Origin: Leucoraja ocellata
Taxonomy: Eukaryota
Assembly (NCBI GenBank): GCA_036785375.1
Contig: JAWMAR010000546.1
Coordinates: 1,116,001-1,180,000 of the forward strand
Direction of reading: 5' to 3'
Length of the DNA stretch: 64,000 bases
Shown: in pieces, positions 1 through 64,000 of the stretch
Position numbering within the stretch: the first letter of the stretch is position 1
Layout: each line of letters starts with the position of its first letter
Notes under the pieces: generated by a model
Database searches by the model: none
What the model was told of the DNA's origin: nothing
The model's input: the letters and a program-made list of their open reading frames with translations, nothing else
Position numbers and translations under genes: made by a program

Positions 1-2191
1 GGTTATTAGCCTTAATAAGTTTGGAATACTAATTTCTGGTTTTGTAATGTAAATTAATACATCATCTGCGTATAGAGAAATTTTATTCACTGTGTCCTTT
101 GTGTTATACCCATGTATTTCCGGATGCCCCCTAACTCTTTCTGCCAGTGGCTCAATAGCAAGCGCAAGTAATAATGGAGATAACGGGCATCCTTGTCTAC
201 AACCTCTAGATAGGCTAAATTTAGATGACAACCTTTGGTTAGTAAATATTCTAGCCGTGGGATTTGTATATAACAGTTTTATCCATGTACAGAATTTCTC
301 CCCTAGCTGCATCTTTTCCATCACCGAAAATAAATAAGACCATTCGACCTGATCAAATGCTTTTTCAGCGTCAAGTGAGATTATTGCTAGATCTTCATTA
401 ATAATTCTCTTGGAATATATAATATTAAATAATCTTCTTAGATTATAATATGAGTACCGTTTCTGAATAAAACCTGTTTGGTCAGGGTGTATTAATTTAT
501 TCATCACTGTACTTAATCTATGCGCTAGTATTTTAGTTAATATTTTCTGGTCTGTATTTAAAAGTGCAATTGCTCTGTATGATCCCGGGTCTTCCGGATC
601 TTTATCAGCTTTAGGAATAAGTGTTATTATAGATTCATTTAAAGTGTCTGGAAGTTTCTGTTGAGTATAGATATACTCATACAGTCTTTGTAAACGTGGG
701 CAAAGCAAATCATAAATTTTTTTGTAAAATTCGGAGCCTAAACCATCTGGCCCTACTGCTTTACCATTTTTTAAAGAGCCAATAGACTCCTCAATATCCT
801 TTATCGTAATCTCCCTTTCTAATAATTCTCTATCGTTTGAATCTAAACCTTTTAAATTACATTTTATTAAAAAATCTGCTATTCCTTCTGATTGTGCTAC
901 GGTTTTAGTTGAATAAAGGTTATGATAGTATTGGAGAAATCTATCATTTATGTCCTTGGGCATTTTTAATAATTCTCCTGTCTCTGTTCTAATTTTATGA
1001 ATTATTTTTTCCCCTTCCATTTTTCGTAACTGGCGTGCTAATAGTTTTTGTGGTTTGTCTCCAAATTCAAAATGTAATTGTTTGGTTTTTTGATAAAGTT
1101 TTATTACTTGTTCTGAATACATTTTATTTAATTTATATTTCAATACAGCAATTTTATTATGTTTTAACGTAGATGGCATTCTCGCATTTTCTATATCTAG
1201 TTGCTTGATTTCACTTTCCAATGTCTGTTGCTTAATCCTGTTCTCTTTATTATAAAATGCTTGAGCAGAAATTAATGTACCTCGAACATACGCTTTGAAC
1301 GTTTCCCACATAAGAGAAGTGGGTGTGTCAGGGTTGTCATTTACCTCAAAAAATATTTGAATCTGTTTAATAATATATTCCTGGCATGATCTTTCGTTCA
1401 AAATTTGTGGGTTAAATCTCCAATATGCTTGTTTCTCGGACATTCCATTTAATTTAATCATGAATGTTACAGGTGCGTGACCTGAGATTATAATGTTATG
1501 GTATTTTGAATTATAAATAAATGGGATAAACGTAGCGTCAACTAAAAAATAATCTATTCTTGAGTATGTTTTGTGTACTGGTGAGTAAAATGAATATTCC
1601 CGTCCAGTTGGGTTTTCTATTCTCCAGACATCCTTAATATTAGTGGTATTAATAAATGAATTTAAAAATACACTTGATTGAGATTTTGCTTTTTTTTGCC
1701 TTGATGATCTATCTAAGTATGAATCTAATGTACAATTGAAGTCTCCTCCAATTATTAATTTATATTGTGTAAATTCAGGAATTTTATTAAATGTTTTATT
1801 AAAAAACGTGGGGTTATCAAAATTAGGCCCATAAACATTAAGAAGGATCACTTTTTCTCCATTTAACTCTCCAACTAGTATAATATATCTACCATCAATA
1901 TCCACTATTGTTGAAGAGTTCGTAAAAGGTATTCCTTTACGAATTACTATTGCAACTCCTCTGGACTTGTGGGAAAAGGAGGAATGATATGATTCAGCGA
2001 TCCACTTAGCTTTAAGTCTATGTTGAGATTCCTTTTTAAGGTGTGTTTCTTGAAGAAATATTATATCTGTTTTGATTAAATTTAGATGTGCCAAAACTTT
2101 ACTTCTCTTAATTGGTTCATTGATTCCCTTGACATTCCAACTACAAAATGTTATTCCCTGACCCCCCTCTTGTCATGTTAACATCTTGCAT
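1..2191 (-). mobile_element. L1-clade LINE ORF2 (APE endonuclease + reverse transcriptase), 5'-truncated, running off the window start
   Basis: Manual minus-strand translation gives SWNVKGIN, FLQETH, NVYGPN, IIGGDFN, YSRIDY (endonuclease) and YRAIALLN, DQTGF, SLDAEKAFD, RQGCPLSP, LYADD (RT). The ORF track lists no minus-strand sub-ORF here, consistent with a frame that stays open to position 1. Confidence 0.95.
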
Positions 2192-3431: not shown

Positions 3432-6400
3432 AAACCCCTCTAAATCCCTCCAAACCACTCTAAATTGCTCCAGATCCATCTAAACCTCCCCAAAACCATC
3501 TAAACACCCCCAAACCTCTCTAAACCCATGTAAAGCCCTCTAAACACATATACACCCCTTGTAAACCCCATGTAAACCCATCGAAACCCAGGTGAACCAC
3601 TCTAAACGCCTCTAAACCCGTATAAAGCCCGCTAAACCCCGCTAAACCCCTGTAAACCACTCTAAACCCCCCCCTATAAACTCACATAAACCCATCTAAA
3701 CCCCCTGTAAACCGCACGTAAACCCCTCTACACCCTTGTTAACGCCTCTAAACATTGTAAACCCGTCCAAACCTCCAAACACCTGAAATCCACTCTAATC
3801 CCCTCCAATCCTCTCCAGAACCCTCCAATCCCCACAAAACCCCGACAGACACCATCCAAACCCCTCTAAACCCCCTGTAAAGCCAATGTAAACTCGTCAA
3901 AACCCAAACCGCTCTAAATCGTTTTAAACCCCTCTAAATCTCTCTACACCGGTAAACACCTGTAAACCCCTGTAAACCCCTCTAAACCCGCTAAATCCAT
4001 CTAAAACCCTCTAAACCCCTCTGAGCCCCTGTAAATTCTTCTAAACCCCTGTAAACCCCCATAAGTCCCTCTAAACCCCTGAAAACCTCTCTAAAACCCT
4101 TTAAATCCCTGTAAATTACTCTAAACCTCTCCACAAATATAAACACTTGTCAACCCCTTTAAATTCCTCTAAACCCCGCTAAAACAATCTAAAACACTCT
4201 ACTCCTCTAAACACCCGTACAACATTCTAACCCCCGGAAAACCCCTGCAAACCCCTCTAAACCCCTCTAATCCCCTGTAATCCTCTCTAAACCCCTAAAC
4301 CTCTCTAAACACCTGTAAACACTTGTAAACACCTGTAAACCTCTCTAAACACATGTAAACCTCTCTAAACACCAATGCACCCCTATAAAACCATCGAAAC
4401 CCCTCTAAACCCCTGTACCCCCTAAACCCATGTAAATCCGTCCAAACTCCGCAAAACCCCTCTAACCCCCTCCAGACCCATATAAAGTCATCTAAACCCA
4501 TATAACCCTTGTAAGCCCCATGTAAACCCATCTAAACCCCGGTGAACCACTCTAAACGCATCTAATCCCGTATAAAGCCCGCTAAACTCCTCTAAATCCC
4601 CTGTAAACCACTCTAAACCCCGATAAACGCAGATAAAGCCCTCTAACCCCCCTGTAAACCCTACGTAAACCCCTCTACACCACTATTAACCCCTCCAAAC
4701 CCTGTAGCTCCCTCCAAACCTCTCCAAACACCTGAAATCACCTCTAAACCCCTCCAAACCGCTCTAATCCTCTGTAGAATGCTCCAATCCCCACCAAACC
4801 CCTCTAAACACCATCCAAACCCGTTGTAAACCCTAGGTAACCGCGTCTAAACCCAAACCCCTCTAAATTCCTATAGCCCTCTAAACCCCTCGAACACCCT
4901 GTAAACCCTTCTAAACCCCTGTAAACCCCAGGTAACCCCCCTAAACCGTTGTAAACCCCATGTAAACCTCTCTAAACCACTCTAAAGCCATATAAACCCC
5001 TGTAAACCCCATGTAAACCCATCTGAACCCCGGTGAACCACTCTAAACGCCCCTAACCCCGTATAAAGCCCGTTAAACCCCTCTAAACCCATGCAACCCT
5101 TTATAAACCCCTATAAAGCCCCGTAAACCCTTCTGAACCCCCTGCAAACTCGATGTACACCCTCCAAAACCCCTGTAAACCTCATGTAAACACCCCTAAC
5201 CCCCCATCTAAACCCCCTATAAAACTACACAAACCCCTGTAAACCCATATAAACCCCTGTAATCCTCCCTAAAACTCTCTAAACCACTCTAAACATCTCT
5301 GAACAACTGTGAATCCCTCTAAACCCCTCCAAACCCATCTAACCCGCTCTAAATATCTCCAAACCGCTCCAAACCGCCCCAAACCCCTCTAAACCCATCC
5401 AAAATCCACCCACCCATATAAAGCCCTCTAAACCTCTATCCACCCTGTAAACCTCATGTAAACTCCTCTAAATCCATGTGATTCATTTTAAACGCCTCTA
5501 AACCGCAATAAAGCCCGCTAAACCCCTCTAAACCCATGTAAACCCCTCTAAACCCCCTATAAAGCCATGTAAACCCTTGTAAACCTCTCTACACCTATAA
5601 ACACCTGTAAACCCCATGTAAACTCTAAACCCCTGTAAACCCCACTAAACTCCTCTAAATCCTTGTAAACGATTGTGAACCCATGCAAACCTCTCTAAAC
5701 ATCTCTAAAACCCTGTAAACACCTTTAAACCCCTATACACCCCCTGTAAACCCCCTGTAAATGCATATGAACCCCTCTACACACCACTAAATCCCCTGTA
5801 AACCCCTCTAACTCCCTCTAGACATCTCTAAACCCATCTAAACTAAACCTCTCCAGACTCCTCCAACCCCCTCTAAACCCCCGTCCAAAGCCCTCTAAAC
5901 CCCATGTAAAGCCCTCTAACCCCATCTAGACCACCTGTAAACCCCATGTAAACACATCTAAATGCCTGCAAACCACTCACAACCCCTCAAACCCTTATAA
6001 AGCCCTCTTAACCCCTGTAAACACCTCTAAAACCATATAAAACACTCAAACCCCTCAAAACCCATCTAAACCCCATGTAGACCCCCCCCCTAACCCCTGT
6101 GAACCTCTGTAAACCTCTCTAAAACACTCAAAACCCCTCTAAACCGCTCTAAACATCTGCAAACACCTGTAAACCCCTCTAAACCCCCTATAAACCCATC
6201 TAAAACCCCTCATGTAAATCCCTGTAACTCCCTCTAAACACCTCTAAACACGTGTAAACCCCTCCGAACCTCTGTAAACCCCTCTAAACACCTTTAATCC
6301 CATGTAAACCGCAGTAAACGCCGCTAAGCCCCAGTAGACGCCTGTAAACCCCTCTAGACCACTGTGAACCCCGGTAAAGCCCTCTATAACCATCTAACCC

Positions 6401-30359: not shown

Positions 30360-30589
30360 ATATCTGGCCAGTAAGAGCGATAATGTTGAAGTGTGTCCGC
30401 GATGCGTGCAGTGGTGCAGCTGTGACTTATCTCCAAAACCCCGACGTTACTGTGCCGTCTACATGCGTTTTCAGTAAATTGTCGCCAAGATTTTCAATAT
30501 TCAACGTTAATATATAGTCATCGTTTTGACAGAATGTTTTATATAATTAATTGGGTGGCCACGTGTTCAGCTCAAGGAGGTTAAAGATA

Positions 30590-30605
30590 TTTATTAGCAT
30601 TTATT
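30590..30605 (-). promoter_or_regulatory. Tandem AATAAA polyadenylation signals for secretory mu mRNA
   Basis: AATAAA at 30605-30600 and 30595-30590, about 30-45 nt after the tailpiece stop. Confidence 0.75.
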
Positions 30606-30633
30606 TCAGAGGAATTTGAAACTAAATTCATTC

Positions 30634-31026
30634 TCATTGACAGGAATTGACAGTGTCCATTAATACAAGGGAAACGTTGACAAAACTGGGGTTTACCGCT
30701 GGACTTATTGACCGTTCTGACGATGGTCTTCATGGGGAGTGCTTCGTGCCCCACTAGACAGGAGAAGGAGGCTCCGCTAGCCCACTCCTCTGCCCCAACG
30801 GATAACAGGCTGTATGTGAAGAAGGTATCATTGCCGTTCTCCGCCTCCACCTCGGTGTTCTTGTACTTGCTCTCATCCACCCGCTTGTCATCAAGTGTCC
30901 ACGTGACGAAGACCCTGCGAGGGGAGAATCCTCTCACGAAGCAGGTGAGGATGATAGTCTTGTGGGCGGAGATTTCTTCTGTCGGCGGCAGAAGGACTGA
31001 GACGGAAGGTGGCAGCAGATGTTGAC
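30634..31026 (-). CDS. IGHM: IgM CH4 exon plus secretory tailpiece (tail has a +1 frameshift as assembled)
   Basis: [39 protein letters not shown]. Internal membrane donor G|GTAAA after 30697. Removing one C from CCCC (30688-30691) gives [20 protein letters not shown]-stop, with an N-glycan site and penultimate Cys. Confidence 0.95.
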
Positions 31027-32137
31027 CTAGGGAACAATTGAAATTGCGTTTATTATACAAGACGGTTAAAGCGATTAAAAGCTAAATATATCCGTGAGTA
31101 AACTGCCAACCGACAGTATTAACGGCATTGCATTCCCCTTTTGTGACTTGTCTCTTTGTTCAGACATATACACCTGAATGTGCGTCTCTCCTGTGCACGG
31201 CAGAAGATTTGTATGAATCACTTCACACACTCACACACAAGATCAAGCCAAGCGCCCTCTCTGATCCGTGTTATTTCTGATGGCCATGGTTGACTCTGCT
31301 CCTTTTGTCATTTATTGCTAAATGCAGTTGAATGAGACGTTATCAACCCATGGCAGGAGTAGTTAGTGGATGCCAGCGGAGAATGCTGAGCGTATAAGGT
31401 GATGCTTTGTGAAGTGCGTTTTCGAAATCGATGCAAATGATGGAATTGTAAAATGAATTCAGGGATCGCAGGAAACAAAGAGCACGTCAGACAGTGTGTA
31501 CGCAAAAAGAGATGCCTCTGTATGATGTGGGGAAATGACCCATTCTTAAGTTGCAGAGATAATGTTGGACGGAGTTGAGAGTAAAAAGGGAATTTGGAAA
31601 TGGCCATTTTGACCTGGACAATACAAGCAAAATGGAAAACAAAACACTTCTAGGCTCTTTGTCTGCGGTCTTCCTCGGTGTTATATCTAATCCCTATGGC
31701 AAGCTTTCAGAATGGCATTCCTCCGATCGTTTGTGTAGATGCAGACCATTGGAGCCAATATTAAATGTTCTGCATTAAGTTGACGTCTTTCCGATATACG
31801 GCATTTGAAGGTTTTTGGGTTTTTTCGAATAACTCGTTTCATGTGCCTAGCTCAGAAACTGACATTTCTGCAACTCGAGAGTATCTGCGATCTACTGACA
31901 CCATCACCACATGGTAATTGGTAGGCAAACCCATATCCCTGCAAGTTACAACACTCATTTCATGCAAAGTCATCTCGTATTCTCTCTTTTCCAGCTCTGA
32001 CCAAGGACTCAGTGAAGTCTTAGGACTATTTCATTTTGCATAGATATTGCTTCGCCGACGGAGTGATCTCAATCATTTATTTTAGCTTTATCTCAGAAGA
32101 AAAGTGCACCAGTCACCTCTGGCCCACACCGGCTCAC

Positions 32138-32436
32138 CTTTCTTCCAGTTGATTCGTTCAGTTTTTGCTTTGGCATATTACCATGGCTCACCGCGCATTC
32201 GAAATAATCCCCACTCAGCCAGTCTTGAGTCGAAATGTTGACTTTGCTCTGTACGATATCTGCATGTCCTGTGGGCTGGATGTATGATACCAAAGGTACA
32301 TTCCCACGTTTCCAAGATACTGTGATACCATAAGGTGCATCGGATACCAGACAGGTTAACGTCACGGTCATCTCCATTAACTCTTGTTCAACTTGTGGTG
32401 GAAGGATTTTAATACTCAGTTTGTCGCAGGAAACAT
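32138..32436 (-). CDS. IGHM: IgM CH3 exon (-1 frameshift near its 3' end as assembled)
   Basis: [29 protein letters not shown] and GTGAG sites give 299 nt, one short of phase 1-1. Adding 1 nt at about 32162-32167 restores ..[10 protein letters not shown]. Confidence 0.92.
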
Positions 32437-32769
32437 CTGTGGCACAATAATGAATGTGAACATAAGCATTTGCAGGAGTAACCGGCATCGAAGGTTTACA
32501 CCAATCATCCGCCCCCAAAACTTGAATGTGTACATGACCCCTTCTGATTAGTGATTCTGGGAACATGGGTCCTAAATCGTCATGAACTGACTTTTGTCTC
32601 TGTGCAGAGAACGACCACAATAAATGAAATGAGAGGTCGCATCATGGGCTATACCACGCTAGACACGCAGAGCTGGAGTACTGTAACTCAGCGGGTCAGG
32701 CACCATCTCTGCAGAAAATGAATACATGCTGTTTCTGGTCGAGACCCTCCTTTAGACTGAGAGTCTGGG

Positions 32770-32800
<31 letters not shown>

Positions 32801-32895
32801 GGTGTAGAAGTATTAATAGGTACAAATAAAAAAACAACCCTGAGCGCTAATGTTTACACTAATATCCCGAGACACACCACGGATGTATTTCTTAC

Positions 32896-33213
32896 CTGGA
32901 GGCATACTGATGTTTTGGCTTTTCAAATCTTTTTCATGGTTGACTTGGCAGGTATAGACGAAATCTCCGAACCACTCTTCAGCTGTGAATGTCAACTGGC
33001 TGGTCGCCGAGAAGTTACCGGTACCGTTCACCTGGAAGGCGGGAGAGGTGACGATGCCCGAATCCAATGGCTTTCCATTCTTCAGCCAGTTCACAGTAAA
33101 TATGGCTGGGGTGAAATCGTTGACCAAACACACGGCGATCGCTTTTCTGCTGCGCTTAATTTCATCAAGAGCAGTTATGGTAATGGTGACGGTAGGATGA
33201 TGTACCACGCGGA
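32896..33213 (-). CDS. IGHM: IgM CH2 exon (intact)
   Basis: HPTVTI..AVCLVNDFTP..WLKNGK..YTCQVNH. 318 nt, ttcag acceptor and GTAAG donor. Confidence 0.95.
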
Positions 33214-34089
33214 CTGAAAGGAAATAAACTTCATTGGAATTGCTCATAAACCATCGTCGATTAATAATGACGTCCAATATTTTCACCCCAAAAAAAATAT
33301 CACATTTTCTGATTAAAAGTAGCCGTCCACTCACTTGGACTTCCCGAGATGCTACTAAATTCTTTGTTTATCATGGTACATCGAGTGCTCGTAAATGGTG
33401 AACTTATAGTTCGGTGTCGTTGTCACAGGGATGTAATGGGCCGACTTCTGCTTTTGTCCTCTGTGACTGTGTCTGTGCTTTTAATATTCTTGATAATGTT
33501 CTCAACATGATGCACTCAGCCGCTCCGATTGTTCGCCAGTTAAAATGTAACGTATCTATGTATAGATCAGTTCCTCGCGAATTATATGGACGGGCTGGTG
33601 ATGATAATAAATTGATCAGCACTCTTTTCAAACTCTCTACAAGTATTTTTTTAATGTTTTATGATTTTGTGAATGGCGAATTGTCTCGATATTTGAAGCA
33701 CCGCCTTTCGTTCCGTCACAAGAACGCTTCGGTAATATGAATATCGCTCTCGCCCCTCGGTGCCTGGAAACACAACTCACCGTTTTGTCCAAACAACAAC
33801 AGCAGATGTTGTTTGATTTTTTTTTTAAAGCGAAAGGCTGGAATAATGTGGCGGGTGGTTTAAGTGTTTTTGGTCTTTGGTGGTTATGTTGAGAATAGAG
33901 TTTCATCATTGTTCCAGATGTTACATCACATCTGTGGATGCAGCCACACTTTCACATCACTATATAGACATGAATTGTCTGTCTTTGACCAGATGGATCG
34001 TGGAGCTCAGATGAGCGTTCGACGTTCAGTATGACATGAAGAATAAAACCGAACAGGGCACATTAGGTCAAGTACTTATCTTCAATTGT

Positions 34090-57930: not shown

Positions 57931-58576
57931 GGTCAGTGAGTGCTGCATTGGTGCAGGAGGTGGCACCGATGCAGTCGTTCATGTAGCACAGGTAGTTTTT
58001 TTTTATTTAAATGACGAAGGTGACTTGAGAGCTGGGGGCTGGGGAGTAAAATATGGGCACAAGAATGAGGAAGAGAGCGTGTGCAGGGTGCTATGATTCT
58101 AAATTGGAGAAATCGGTGTTTATACTGTTCCATTGAAAGATATCCAAGCGGATCATCATCGGGTGCTGCTCTCCACTGTGTGTGAGGCCAAGATTGACAA
58201 TGGAAGATGCTCGGTGTGGGAATGGGAAACAGAGCTTAACTGACTGTGAACTTTACGGAGAGAGCATAATGGTCATCAAAACGGTTGCCTGGTCACTCTT
58301 GGTCTCACCAATGTACACAAATGAGCATCGCAGGAAACAAATGCTGCATACGTGATCTGCAGAGGTAGATGTGAATCTCAGTCTGAACTGGGACAACTGC
58401 CTGTGTGGCTGGTGGAAGTGAAACAGGAGCTGTCGGGCCAGGCGTTACATTCCATGCGGATGTAGGGGAAATGCTTGGGAATGGAGCGGTTTCGGTGGGG
58501 AGAGATGACCAGACCAAGCAACTGCGGACAATGTGGTCTCTCTGGAAAACGGAAGGGGCGGAAACGGAAAGATAGA

Positions 58577-59600
58577 GACATAGAAACATAGAGTGATACA
58601 GTGTGGAAACAGGCCCTTCAACCCAACTTGACCACACTGACCAACGATGTCCCAGCTACACTTGTCCCACTTGCCTGCACTTGGTCCATAACCCTCCAAA
58701 CCTGTGCTATCCATGTACCTGTCCAACTGTTTCTTAAACGATGGGAGAGTCCCAGCCTCATCTACCTCCTCTGGCAGCTTGTTCCATATACCCATCACCC
58801 TCTGTGTGAAAAAGTTACCCTTCGTATTCTTATTAAATCTTTTACCCTTCACCTTGAACCCATGTCCTCTGGTCCTTGATTCCCCTATTCTCATGATTTT
58901 GTACTCCTCTATAAGATCACCCCTCATCCTCTACGCTCCATGAAATAGTGACCCAGCCTACTCAACCTCTCCCTATAGCTGACACCGTCTAGTCCTGGCA
59001 ACTTCCTCGTAAATCTTTACTGAACCCCTTCAAGCTTGACAACATATTTCCTATAACATGGTGCCCAGAACTGAACACAATATTCTAAACTCACCAACTG
59101 TTTATACAACTACAACATGACCTCCCAACTTCTATACTCAATGCTCTGATTGATGAAGGTCAAAGAGCCAAAAGCCTTTTTGACTACCTTAGCTACCTGC
59201 GACACGACCTTCAAGGAACCATGCACCTGTACTCCTAGATCCCTCTGCTCTACAACACTAACCAGAGGCCGTTTGTTGTGTAGGTCCTGCCCTTGTTCGA
59301 GGATGCAAAATGCAACATCTCACACTTCTCTGTATTAAATTCCATCAACCATTCCTCCCGCCCACCTGGCTAATTGATCCAGATCCTGCTGCAATCTTTC
59401 ACAACCATCTTCACTATCTGCAAAAACACTCACTTTTGTATCATCAGCAAACTTGCTAATCTTGCCCTGTATGTTCTCATCCAAATCATTGATGTAGATG
59501 ACAAATAGTAACAGGCCCAGCACCCAACCCTGAGGCACACCACTAGTCACAGACCTCCAGTCCGAGTAGCAACCTTCCACCATCTCCCTCTGTTTCAGTA
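58577..59600 (-). mobile_element. CR1 LINE RT-to-3' fragment, nested in degenerate Penelope sequence
   Basis: SGVPQGWVLG..YINDL..KFADDTK motifs and tail. Confidence 0.9.
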
Positions 59601-60284
59601 TTTCCTCGACGGTAACCCTGACTGCTGTCATGACACTTCCAGTGACAGGACGCGACTGGAGATGAGATCACATTGAAGATATTGGAAATGTCGGAGAATG
59701 ATATATTATATGTGCAGGCTGGTGTGGTGAAAAGCGAGGTCCAGAGGAACATTATCCTTGTTCTGTCTGAGGAAGGGCGAGTGAGAGTAGAACTGCGAGA
59801 CACAGGGAACGTATGGATGGAGGTGTAATCCACAACTGCACGGCTAAACCACGGCTACTGAAATTAAAGGAAGGTTTCATTTGTCGTTGGGTGAAAAGCG
59901 TTATCGTAGAAGTAGAAGTAACTGAGACGGAGAACTCGAGAGTAAGGGATGGTGTCCTTACAAGGGGCAGATTGGAAGGATGCAGTCAAAGTAACTGAGT
60001 CAGCGGGTATTAATGGACGTCTGTGCGTAGTCTACATTTTGTGATGGAGACAGAGAGATCCTGAAAGCAAAGTTCAGTCACAGAGATTGTCCTGGTGAAT
60101 GTCCGTTGCTCTATTTAATTTCTCCATGTCAGTAACACTCTCTGTAGACGTAAAGCCAGTCAAGCCTCACTACGTTCTGCCAGATTCTGAAAGTATTTGA
60201 CATTGTCAAGGTGAATTATGATCATTTGTTCACATTGAAACTCTCTGACAAATCATTTTTACCATGTTTTGCTGTTTATCATAT

Positions 60285-62290
60285 GCTGAGGAAATGGAGC
60301 AGCTGGGCTTGTAAACTCTGGAGTTTAGAAGACGAGAGGGGTTCTTATTGAAACATATACGATTATTCAGGGTTTGGGTATGCTAAAGGGAGGAAACATG
60401 TTCCTGATGTTGGGGGAGTCCAGAACCAGGGGCCACAGTTTAAGAATAAGGAGTAAGCCATTTAGAACGGAGATTAGGAAACACTTTTTCACACAGAGAG
60501 TGGTGAGTCTGTTGAATTCTCTTCCTCAGAGGGCAGTGAAGGCAGGTTCTCTGGATACTTTCAAGAAACAGCTAGATAGGGCTCTTAAAGATAGCGCAGT
60601 CAGGGGATATGGGAAGAAGGCAGAAACGTGGTACTGATTGGGGATGATCAGCCATGATCACATTGAATGGCGGTGCTGGCTCGAAGGGCCAAATGGCCTA
60701 CTCCTGCACCTATTGTCTATTGTCTATTGTTATTGCGCATGGGACATGCTCCAGGGAAATATTTGTAATTGCGATTTCATGAACAACAGTGTTGTACACT
60801 GAAACATATTATAGTAACGGATCATGACTAGACACGAACATTAACGATTGGAGCAAGGTGGGCCATTAGGCCCTTAAAACTGGTTCAGCCTTCAACCCAA
60901 TCATTGCTGATCATCATGTGTCCGATTCTTCCAAATATTATTACCAGTTGAGGGTACAAGACATGTGTTGCTGGGCAGATCTTGGAGTTGTTAGTTTGCA
61001 GTCAGCAGCTCTGTGCATCGGGCTGGAATCAGTACATTCATTTCTCTAAATAATCCACAGGTGCTTCCGTTCAGTTAGCTCCTGCTCTTTGTTAGCGATG
61101 GAGTGTTGGACTCCAGCCACATCATATGTGGGGGAAAGGTGAAATCAAATGGAATCAGAATAAATATGAAATGCCATTCATTTAAAAAAAATTCAGCTTT
61201 AACGGCGAGTTCTGAGGCTAATAAAATTAAGTGAGACACAGATGTGGCAGGGAAAACGTAACATTTTGGATGATCATTCATGGTCAAGTTGAACGTCAAT
61301 AAGCAATAATGCAATAGCAAGGAGAGACATTCGTTTGGATGTTGTAAAATCAGTATGGGTAGAACAGTGAAATAGCCAAGGGCAGAAAACGTTTGTTGGA
61401 GTGGGATACAGACCCCCAACAGCAGGATGGAGGTTGGGGATAGCATCAAGCAGGAAATTAGTGATGCATGCAGCAAAGATACAGCGGTTATCATGAGTGA
61501 CTTCAATTTACCGGTAGATTGGGCCAACCAAATTGGTAACAATGCTGAGGAGGATTTCCAGGAATGTATACGGGATGGGTTTTTAAACCAATATGTAGAG
61601 GAACCGACTAGAGGGCAGGCTGGGTATTGTGTAACGAGGACAGATTAGTTAGCGATCTTGTTGTGCAAAGCTACTCGGTCAACTGTGACCATAATATGGT
61701 GGAATTCCACATTAGAATGGAGAGTGACACGGTTAATTCAGAGACTAGGCTCCTGAACTTGAATAAAGACTTTGAAGGTATGAGACGGGAACTGGCTAGG
61801 AGAGACAGGCACATTTTATTTAAAGGGTTGACAGTGGAAATGCAATGGCGAAGATTTAAAGACCGCTTAGATAAACTTAGATACGTCACAGAGTCATAGT
61901 GTACCACAGTGTGGAAACGGGTCCTTCGGCCCAACTTCCCCACATCAACCACCAATGTCCCAGCTACTAGTCCCACTTACCTGCACTTGGTCAATATCCC
62001 TCCAATCCATGTCATATCAATGTATCTAACTGTCTTTTAAACAATGGGATAGTCCCAACCTCAACCACCTCCTCTGGCGGCTTGTTCCATACACCCACCA
62101 CCCTTGGTGTGAAAACGTGATCTCTCGGATTCCTGTTATATCTTTTCCCCTTCACCTTGAACCTATGTCCTCTGGTCCTCGATTCCTTCACTCTGGTCAC
62201 AAGTCTCGGGGCATCTTCCCGATCTTTTCCTCCCATGATTTTGTACACCTCTTTAAGATCTCCCCTCATCATCCTCCTGCGCTCCATGGC
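60285..62290. mobile_element. CR1 fragments (3' end + 60285-60731; endonuclease region + about 61300-61880; 3' end - about 61885-62290)
   Basis: RGHSLRIR, SDFNLPVDW, CDHNMVEF and RGHRFKVK motifs. Confidence 0.85.
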
Positions 62291-62307
62291 GATTGATACA
62301 AATACAT

Positions 62308-63276
62308 CTATAGATGCTCCTGAACACATCATCAGTGATGTAACCTGGGGTCATTGGGTGTTTCGGGTCTTTCAACATCAGACACCCTCACCCAGGCAAC
62401 CCAGCCGTGGTTGATCAGACCACGACTTGTGTTCAGGTGGCATTCGCTCCTCCCCATGGACCTTCTCTCCTGATCCAGCCATCTCGAGGCCTTCTCCGCT
62501 GCCTCTGTGGTGTTCTTGATGGCCCTTCTCCTCGCCACTCCGTTGATGCCCATTGCACTCAAGGCTCTGTAGAGCGATTGCCCTGCAAAACCTCTGCAGC
62601 CAACCTCGATGGGCATACACCTTGCCTTCCAGCCCTGCTTGCGGCAGTCTATGACCAGCTCTTCATACTTGGCCATCTTCCTCTCGTGGGCCTCCTCCAG
62701 ATGGTCCTCCCACGGCACTGTCAGTTCCAACAAGACAATGTTTTTGGTCGTCACTGAGACCAGGAGGATATCTGGCCTCAGGCAATGTGCCGTGGGAACC
62801 TCAGCTGTTTCACCAGGTCTATGGAAAGCTGCCAGTCCTGCGCAGTCGCCAGGATTCCTGATTGATTCCTGGCTGCTGTGGTTCTTGACAGCTGCACTCC
62901 GGCTTTCACGAAGGTGATCATCTGGGTGGTGGGCCGTTCTCGTCTACAGCTGCTGATTCCCATGCTGATGGCTTCTGAAAATGGTTTAAGAACCTGGTCA
63001 TGATGCCATGTGTACCGGCCCAGCCCAAGAGCCTTTGGGCAACAGCTCAGGATGTGTTCCAACGTCCCCTTGCCTGAGCATTGCGGGCAATCTGGAGATT
63101 CCGCTTTGCCCCAGATGAAGAGGTTCGATGGGCTGGGCAGGACATCATACACTGCCTGGACCAGGAACTTGATGCGCTGTGGTTCAGCCTGCCAGAGCTC
63201 AGTCCATGTGACTTTTCGGTCCATGGCCTGCTCCCACCTTGTCCAGGCTCCCTGCTGCCTCAATCCAACTGACATC
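62308..63276 (-). mobile_element. RLE-type non-LTR retrotransposon 3' fragment (HERO/NeSL-like), frameshifted
   Basis: CCHC knuckle CPQC..HILSCC, YTWHHD (RHD motif), RPD..LELTVPWE..KMAKY restriction-like endonuclease, IEVGCRG. Confidence 0.85.
62322..62400 (-). ncRNA. Candidate rearranged (non-circularly permuted) hammerhead ribozyme
   Basis: GGGUGUC / UGAUGU..GACCC-GAAA-CACCC..ACAUCA-CUGAUGA-UGUGU. All core nucleotides present and stems I and III are perfect. Confidence 0.6.
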
Positions 63277-64000
63277 ATTCAGGACCCTGCTGTTATATCC
63301 AATGCTTTCAACCAGCACTTCTCCACTGCATGTAGCTCTACTGTATTTGACTCATCTATTATATGTGACTTTCCAGCTACATCTACATGTAGAAGCTCTT
63401 TTTCTTTTCAAAAAATAAAACCTGTTGACGTTCAACATGCTATTAATGAATTAAAGGATGATTGTGGAGCTGGTCCAGCTGGCATTGAGCCTAAATTAAT
63501 TAAGATAGGAGCTAATATTCTAATGTACCCACTATGCGAACTGCTTAATTTGTCTTTCTCAACTTGTACCCTCCCTTCCGCATGGAAGTGTGCTAATGTT
63601 ACTCCACTGCATAAGGGAGGCGAACCACACAATATTAACAATTACCGCCCCATCTCAATTATCAACTCGGTGGCTAAAATCCTTGAGAAACTAGTGTTCA
63701 ACCAGCTTTCACATTATGTCTCAACTTTCAACATTCTATCTCCATGCCAGTCTGGGTTCAGACCTAATCACTCCACAATTACAGCTCTGTTAAAACTCAC
63801 CAGCGATGTGTTCACTGCTTCTGAGGATGGTAACTCACCGGTGCCATCTTTCTTGATTTAACCAAGGCCTTTGATGTTGTTGACCACTATCTACTGCTTG
63901 ATAAACTTTACTCTATTGGTCTTTCTCAAAGCAATCTACTGTGGTTTAACTCGTACCTTCATAACAGACGCCAATGTGTCACCTTTAATGGAAGTCAATC
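63277..64000 (+). mobile_element. L2/CR1-group LINE RT fragment, running off the window end
   Basis: NNYRPISII..QSGFRPNHST, then (frameshifted) FLDLTKAFDVVDH. Confidence 0.85.

Follow-up and report, generated by a model that had tools for sequence, protein, structure and literature searches.

A 5'-truncated HERO-like retrotransposon on the minus strand of a 64-kb stretch of genomic DNA, the whole of which is called the window here, carries in its 3' UTR a hammerhead-type RNA motif. Comparison of 35 related families makes it very probable that a four-way junction interrupts the core of this motif at the step from A9 to G10.1. A wider reading is that a seventh permutation of the hammerhead, active and with a Holliday-like four-way junction in the core, a kink-turn, and a kissing loop, is present in HERO elements of animals, fish and lancelets among them. 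It would cut the mRNA and seal it into a circle, so that an RLE-type LINE would retrotranspose from circular RNA and, by forming partial tandems, renew its 5' end. This wider reading is tentative and is held with somewhat less than even confidence.

The HERO-like copy and its 3' UTR motif

The element and the parts of its motif lie in the window as follows.

62295 to 63271, minus: 5'-truncated RLE non-LTR retrotransposon (HERO-like), with zinc knuckle, RLE domain, and 3' UTR
62428 to 62437, minus: 5' strand of helix P0, paired with 62328 to 62319; overlaps the stop codon of the family frame (62435 to 62433)
62403 to 62427, minus: hairpin P1, 8 bp with a 9-nt loop and the palindrome UGAUCA (62417 to 62412); adjoins P0 and G10.1 with zero unpaired bases
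62398 to 62402, minus: 5' strand of the relocated stem II (G10.1 = 62402), partner 62369 to 62365
62388 to 62396, minus: 5' strand of the bridging helix and GA of the kink-turn-like loop, partner 62352 to 62344; equivalent to helix 'I' of type-SGC
62375 to 62387, minus: block S, read from the sequence, with stem III 5' strand, U16.1, C17 (62381), the predicted cut between 62381 and 62380, and stem I 5' strand
62356 to 62369, minus: block G, with stem II 3' strand (C11.1 = 62365), GAAA, and stem III 3' strand; core invariant in 35 of 35 families
62344 to 62355, minus: 3-nt bulge, GA, and bridging helix 3' strand, kink-turn-like by comparison of the register
62329 to 62341, minus: stem I 3' strand and CUGAUGA (C3 = 62335, A9 = 62329); stem I 97.7% paired
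62319 to 62328, minus: 3' strand of P0, beginning right at A9+1, supported by covariation; taken earlier for a strand of stem II
62295 to 62318, minus: short hairpin and UGUAU-like motif near the insertion 3' end, from comparison with related loci

DNA homology with related loci covers positions 63271 to 62302 of the HERO-like copy, and comparison with these loci sets its 3' end at about 62295 (± 10 nt). The ORF frame is broken near 62780 and 62476, with relatives having two extra letters at 62476. The RLE domain shares 64% identity over 88 amino acids with a Tetraodon polyprotein, and a zf-RVT match was obtained with an E value of 2.4e-4, under Pfam's cut-off. In total, 236 protein relatives of the copy were found, the named ones coming from teleosts, rays, a skate, and lancelets. 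They are RT-RLE proteins of about 1050 to 1120 amino acids and show the HERO trait of a single RT ORF with a C-terminal zinc knuckle and RLE; the RT domain (PF00078) is gone from the window copy and kept in the relatives. This layout fits the HERO clade as described in PMC9004415 and PMC4640811. Judging from the domain layout and from an RLE tree that included proteins of fish and lancelets, the window element probably belongs to the HERO clade. The zf-RVT match, the RLE match, and the 236 relatives agree with an earlier reading of the window (referred to as the sequence-only reading), which had placed the motif in the 3' UTR of an RLE HERO-like element. In the RLE tree, a motif-bearing locus (L012) clusters with the Tetraodon polyprotein (support, 99/95). 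The nearest protein relative of positions 62479 to 62781 is P0002 of the teleost Astyanax (81% identity over 101 columns; support, 99/95), which is closer to the window RLE than the ray protein is. This affinity hints at horizontal transfer, provided that the host is a cartilaginous fish.

A target-site duplication of the HERO-like copy was looked for in the window, and none was found. The copy is flanked by a plus-strand RT fragment on its 5' side and by a CR1-like fragment on its 3' side. The RT fragment derives from another LINE (63004 to 63861, plus strand) and stands head to head with the HERO 5' junction near 63271 to 63278. CR1-like repeats are present in the window, as are immunoglobulin heavy-chain constant-domain exons (30584 to 33367, minus strand), the one searched matching IgM-type C domains best, and a 724-aa open frame (1 to 2172, minus strand) that starts with an APE-type endonuclease, looks L1/Tx1-like by eye, and leaves the window. 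The immunoglobulin exons and the CR1-like repeats together point to a cartilaginous fish as the probable host.

The motif consists of the minus-strand pieces GGGUGUC (62387 to 62381), UGAUGU (62380 to 62375), GACCC-GAAA-CACCC (62369 to 62356), and ACAUCA-CUGAUGA-UGUGU (62341 to 62324), all at the positions given by the sequence-only reading. Stems I and III, described there as perfect, are indeed 6-bp helices without mismatch, and the step between 62381 and 62380 is upheld as the predicted cleavage site. The noncircular block order A-C-B was also borne out; Eckert et al. 2023 (PMC10085705) name this order S-G-C, and their report of type-SGC RNAs agrees with the remark in the sequence-only reading that rearranged hammerheads had been described. 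The pairing CCUGGG/CCCAGG is present, and what had been seen as an extension of stem III is the counterpart of the bridging helix of type-SGC, which connects stems I and II. The original extent of 62322 to 62400 proved too short, since the structure begins at 62437 and ends at 62319. An S-G-C descriptor found a single site in the whole 64-kb window; among 300 dinucleotide shuffles, none matched with stems I and III of at least 5 bp, and 4 of 300 matched at 4 bp. Rfam hammerhead families gave no match in positions 58000 to 64000 of the window at E values up to 10 and no match in 20 of 81 related loci at E values up to 1.

In the window copy, P0 is a perfect 10-bp helix with pair probabilities of 0.68 to 1.0. 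ViennaRNA folding of 62420 to 62300, a method blind to pseudoknots, gave a z score of -0.89. The construct proposed by the sequence-only reading for a cleavage test (62430 to 62300) would lose most of the outer helix P0, and CUGAUGA is predicted to be sequestered in a hairpin of this construct (pair probability, 0.69). In four public runs with the family, position 62398 is a minus-strand C in about 99% of the depth, from which the window differs; with this C, the last pair of the upstream stem II changes from wobble to Watson-Crick, giving five Watson-Crick pairs. The remaining frequent differences within the motif in these runs lie in linkers or in the kink, and three differences, each seen in a single contig, affect P0 or P1, where two produce a wobble and one a mismatch. 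Contigs of the four runs, two of which have a guessed RNA status, showed no clustered ends and no RNA ends. In the window copy, the stop codon of the family frame falls within the 5' strand of P0; in many loci it is located at this strand or immediately ahead of it. A terminating ribosome could thereby unfold the junction and gate cleavage.

Helix architecture and core conservation

Loci were picked by the RLE protein alone, without reference to the motif. The best 80 of 352 metagenome stretches yielded 79 loci, and genome contigs yielded 2 more. Hammerhead boxes CUGAnGA, with N7 free, and GAAA were found in 61 of these 81 protein-fetched loci (best 80 of 352 stretches plus 2 genome loci), with the three blocks anchored within the first 330 nt past the RLE match. 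These 61 loci and the window gave 62 copies, grouped into 35 families at 80% identity, and the RLE identity between families ranges from 32% to 91% (median, 52%). The 20 loci left out of the counts include those that are too short (L023, L026, L046, L049, L072, and L080) or short with the motif still visible (L002 and L029), those with U3-A8 (L050 and L055), those decayed or mis-anchored (L007, L014, L021, and L053), and those truncated or deleted (L001, L031, L040, and L043). Only 2 of the 81 loci (L057 and L078) have no trace of the motif. Many of the loci come from a few metagenomes, and the families are related to one another. Terminal repeats in contigs L049 and L037 raise the possibility of collapsed assemblies. 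No relatives were found in viral contigs in two scans. Two HERO fragments occur in bacterial genome records (L080 and L081; Thalassococcus and a Brevinema MAG), most likely as host DNA contamination. Covariation was scored on a MAFFT alignment of the 35 families made from sequence only; the core boxes CUGAnGA and GAAA are partly imposed by the anchor, the loci having been selected by protein only.

Across the 35 families, the six-helix model was paired in 87.2% of cells, compared with 60.5% after shuffling (0 of 500) and 36% to 41% when slid, and 37 of 40 pairs showed two-sided changes. Stem III was 95.7% paired, nearly as much as stem I, and pair 1.1-2.1 occurs as four types and is paired in every family. 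The upstream stem II was 94.2% paired with 44 two-sided changes. Of the 35 families, 31 have it starting 20 to 21 nt ahead of the cut, 30 have at least 4 pairs in it (swap control, 34%), and 29 have the pair G10.1-C11.1. P0 was 83.1% paired, with two-sided changes in 10 of 10 pairs; at least 6 contiguous pairs from A9+1 were found in 26 of 35 families (swap control, 16%), and the helix shrinks to about 4 bp in one subfamily. P1 was 79.0% paired, with two-sided changes in 8 of 8 pairs, and its loop centers on a hexamer palindrome in 22 of 35 families (UGAUCA in 15, UGGCCA in 5, UCAUGA in 1, and GACGUC in 1). The bridging helix was 81.6% paired, with at least 5 contiguous pairs in 28 of 35 families; in 31 families it comes after a 5-bp stem II and one purine. 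It is followed by the stem I 3' strand, an order shared with the HRIMA-1 alignment. A kink-turn has a 3-nt bulge and then tandem G.A and A.G pairs. Measured against this general consensus, the strict register is found in 20 of 35 families, the remainder being shifted or having a bulge instead. ViennaRNA, which provides no test of a pseudoknotted model, predicted P0 in 26 of the 35 families, stem III in 14, stem II in 10, and stem I in 0. A local hairpin, ACAUCA-CUGA-UGAUGU, was rejected as a conserved structure, its 37.6% pairing being at the shuffle level, and it matters for truncated constructs only.

Because the strand before GAAA pairs upstream and the strand after A9 closes P0, the core would be opened between A9 and G10.1. 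In the predicted fold, P0 and P1 would form one stack and stem II and the core another, with strands crossing as in a four-way junction, and the kink-turn-like loop would make stem III fold back into the bridging helix of stems I and II. On this model, the RNA corresponds to a type-SGC ribozyme whose usual ends are closed and whose chain is opened anew within block C.

In the core, G12, A13, A14, and A15.1 are unchanged in 35 of 35 aligned families. Position 17 is C in 23, U in 25, A in 14, and G in 0 of the 62 copies, G having been allowed by the search, and U16.1 is present in 60 of 62, in keeping with the NUH triplet (A15.1-U16.1, H not G). All four bases occur at N7. Positions 3 and 8 were left free and form C3-G8 in 48 copies, U3-A8 in 3, U3.G8 in 1, and a mismatch in 0 (n = 52). 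As the U3-A8 cases, together with U3.G8, fall in one clade, the switch probably counts as about one event; U3-A8 is a known active covariation (PMC3088659 and PMC4209133). Three helices adjoin the core, namely, stems I, II, and III with the pairing given above and with G10.1-C11.1 next to stem II. The ordinary link between A9 and G10.1, which is direct or of 1 to 2 nucleotides, was not found, A9 entering P0 and G10.1 following P1. As far as an alignment can tell, the conservation pattern follows the rules of hammerhead chemistry, and cleavage is probably active in the intact families. Hammerheads elsewhere accept one extra nucleotide between A9 and G10.1 (PMC3705267 and PMC4209133), one or two nucleotides being the most known at this step according to Eckert et al. 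2023 (PMC10085705), and short core insertions at other points reduce cleavage (PMC3088659).

Tandem copies and the fate of the RNA

Genomic copies continue about 70 to 90 nt beyond the predicted cut, which speaks against the earlier suggestion that cleavage could process the 3' end of the element. Since insertions end well beyond the cut and near a UGUAU-like motif, cleavage is not the maker of this end. A TGTA(T/A)-like motif lies downstream of A9 in 22 of 35 families, mostly at 21 to 32 nt, and related copies diverge a few bases beyond the UGUAU-like motif, so that 62295 to 62318 is likely the start region of reverse transcription. Among loci with at least 250 nt downstream, 12 of 52 continue into the N-terminus of a next ORF. 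Of the ORF starts examined, 19 of 20 with at least 330 nt upstream have G and C blocks 216 to 683 nt ahead of them, the regular expression used being loose and prone to extra chance matches. Thirteen of these ORF starts are in loci fetched via the RLE of the upstream copy, and 6 of the 7 others have the motif; the seventh has 383 nt upstream only, and the motif of its relatives lies at 434. In L050, L059, and L039, non-element DNA is followed by a partial upstream copy of varying length and then by the unit, and L043 starts at the foot of P0. L045 (24 to 733 versus 3754 to 4455) is a tandem of two HERO families that are 70% identical, with a complete motif in each; because its upstream motif comes from a different family, this tandem could not be produced by a single circle. 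Zebulon of Tetraodon is reportedly also a partial tandem.

The 5' UTR past the tandem junction is shared and internally repetitive in L006, L009, L018, L034, L039, L042, L048, L060, L063, and L068. Its CAGUGAC-like start is conserved between distant families, and this 5' UTR may form another RNA structure or give ribosomes access to uncapped RNA. The contig of L015 (positions 1 to 10) starts one base past the predicted cut of its upstream motif, which may be chance. L001 (1340 to 1360), the copy most similar to the window among the loci fetched, ends about 7 nt past the cut, its homology stopping at window position 62374.

In the proposed mechanism, the hammerhead-type fold cuts HERO RNA at two tandem copies and rejoins the unit into a circle as template for reverse transcription, a scheme given slightly better than an even chance; that the circle itself is the template is, taken alone, evenly balanced. 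The RNA would cleave after H17, and a read-through transcript with two motifs, cut twice, would release a unit RNA running from N1.1 to H17. This unit would start with the stem I 5' strand, block G, CUGAnGA, and the P0 3' strand and end with the P0 5' strand, P1, the G10.1 strand, and the stem III 5' strand. Its ends would be the two halves of one ribozyme, which could reassemble around the nick and be ligated, ligation being favored because about 27 base pairs (P0, II, bridging helix, and III) would hold the halves. The RT-RLE protein would begin copying 20 to 35 nt past A9 and cross the sealed junction. An early stop would give single 5'-truncated copies such as the window copy, and more than one full turn would give partial tandems. 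A circle model of the same logic has been proposed for Penelope-like elements (PMC4209133 and PMC6765202). The palindromic P1 loops point to kissing between copies, which may assist either the circle or a template-jump route.

Nearly the same DNA would be expected if the split-core hammerhead were active and formed no covalent circle, with the linear unit RNA keeping its ends paired and the RT jumping the nick as the R2 RT does between templates. Synthesis by the R2 RT on noncontinuous templates is cited in PMC6765202. The structural and tandem evidence fits equally well, and the chimeric tandem of L045 fits jumps between different RNAs better than it fits a circle. However, template jumps tend to add bases, and 61 of 81 loci keep an unbroken motif over the cut, neither gain nor loss of bases being seen at H17-N1.1; such jumping is regarded as unlikely. 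The motif may instead be a noncatalytic relic or mimic in which the junction switches catalysis off, serving the RT-RLE protein as a binding or priming signal like the R2 3' UTR pseudoknot. The motif lies near the 3' end, the region to which LINE proteins bind, and this would suit such a role. Genomic copies always span the cut, so that unrepaired cleavage would destroy the template, and the literature searched offers no precedent for inserting a helix at A9. However, a binding signal has no need of H17, a free N7, G10.1-C11.1, or the switch from C3-G8 to U3-A8, and a relic is quite improbable.

A ribozyme that acts only as a dimer is given a still smaller chance. Here, the palindromic P1 loops would kiss and two RNAs or tandem copies would swap strands, as in minimal Penelope hammerheads; dimeric hammerheads are established in PLEs (PMC4209133), the self-complementary hexamer of 22 of 35 P1 loops has a covarying center, and a monomer requires a tight bend. 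However, the 13 of 35 families in which this parse finds no central palindrome still keep the core, and the type-SGC RNA SGC-1 cleaves without a linker between stem III and the bridging helix (PMC10085705). Least credible, with very little probability left to it, is the model of the sequence-only reading, an ordinary type-SGC hammerhead that cuts the element 3' end and takes stem II from the strand right after CUGAUGA-U. The block order and the U-then-G after A9 do resemble HRIMA-1. The covariation across homologues that this reading called for found the core and stems I and III conserved or covarying, but its stem II (GUGU/ACCC) was only 52.6% paired over the 35 families, far below the upstream alternative. 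The 52.6% slightly exceeds the shuffled value of 46.1% (3 of 500 shuffles reach it), and G is kept at A9+2 in 24 of 35 families; the six-helix model leaves both this G and the slight excess unexplained. However, a slid version of the same helix scores 52.0%, at least 4 pairs form in 2 of 35 families, and the strand in question is occupied by the covarying 10-bp P0. The U.C mismatch is also constant in the family, with no variant at 62326 in the four runs, and insertions end far past the cut, as described above. The split-core hammerhead with circularization is the preferred model.

Relation to known ribozymes and elements

Eckert et al. 2023 (PMC10085705) defined blocks S, G, and C, assumed them to be uninterruptible, and recognized six permutations; type-SGC hammerheads cleave in vitro, and all come from metatranscriptomes and none from genomes of known organisms. 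The predicted split-core layout falls outside these six permutations. With type-SGC (HRIMA-1 and variants), the HERO motif shares the S-G-C order, the same core nucleotides, and a short linker between stems I and II, and, like active HRIMA-1, it has a 5-bp stem II, one purine, and then a helix bridging stems I and II. Both the S-G-C order and the bridging helix (81.6% paired; at least 5 pairs in 28 of 35 families) thus recur here. In contrast, block C of type-SGC is intact, with at most a bulged U after A9, whereas P0 and P1 occupy the A9-G10.1 step of the HERO motif, the strand with G10.1 has moved to the 5' side of everything else, and both strands of the bridging helix connect to stem III. 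In addition, type-SGC is known from metatranscriptomes only, whereas the HERO motif is in animal retrotransposons. The type-SGC RNAMotif descriptor, which requires stem II after CUGAUGA(U)G with at least 2 further pairs, does not accept the window copy, which fails at pair 10.2-11.2. Because of the core interruption, descriptor and Rfam searches miss the HERO motif. In its predicted layout, this motif lies outside types I to III and, by its A9-G10.1 link, outside type-SGC.

Hammerheads of Penelope-like elements and retrozymes resemble the HERO motif in the repeat at both ORF ends, the head-to-tail or partial tandem arrangement, the U3-A8 variants, an insertion at the A9-G10.1 step (one nucleotide in theirs), and the proposal of a circle (PMC4209133 and PMC6765202). 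They differ in being type I, often minimal and dimeric, and associated with a GIY-YIG endonuclease, whereas the HERO motif has full stems, a pseudoknotted order, and an RLE-type LINE as host. The 5' HDV-like ribozymes of R2, L1Tc, and RTE are likewise self-cleaving RNAs in non-LTR retrotransposons, cleavage being a prediction for the HERO motif, and R2 is also RLE-type (PMC6765202). According to the same text, they belong to another ribozyme class and release the element by cleaving at the 5' border of the ribozyme itself, whereas the predicted HERO cut is internal to a 3' UTR structure kept whole in genomic copies. The relatives match the HERO clade, including Zebulon, in a single ORF of about 1050 to 1120 amino acids with RT, zinc knuckle, and RLE and in their fish and lancelet affinities (PMC9004415 and PMC4640811). 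No ribozyme is described for this clade in the literature searched. Searches of the literature, with most subscription journals and Repbase Reports outside their scope, turned up neither a hammerhead in HERO elements nor one with a helix between A9 and G10.1.

The split core challenges the assumption that the three blocks of the hammerhead cannot be interrupted. Noncircular hammerheads, so far a feature of unknown RNA agents, would also gain a place in the genomes of vertebrates, and dozens of variants occur in nature. A core that tolerates a helix at A9-G10.1, together with possible circular templates, bears on the engineering of ribozymes and of RNA-templated gene insertion. For the HERO elements themselves, the motif is a candidate answer to how they keep making partial tandems.
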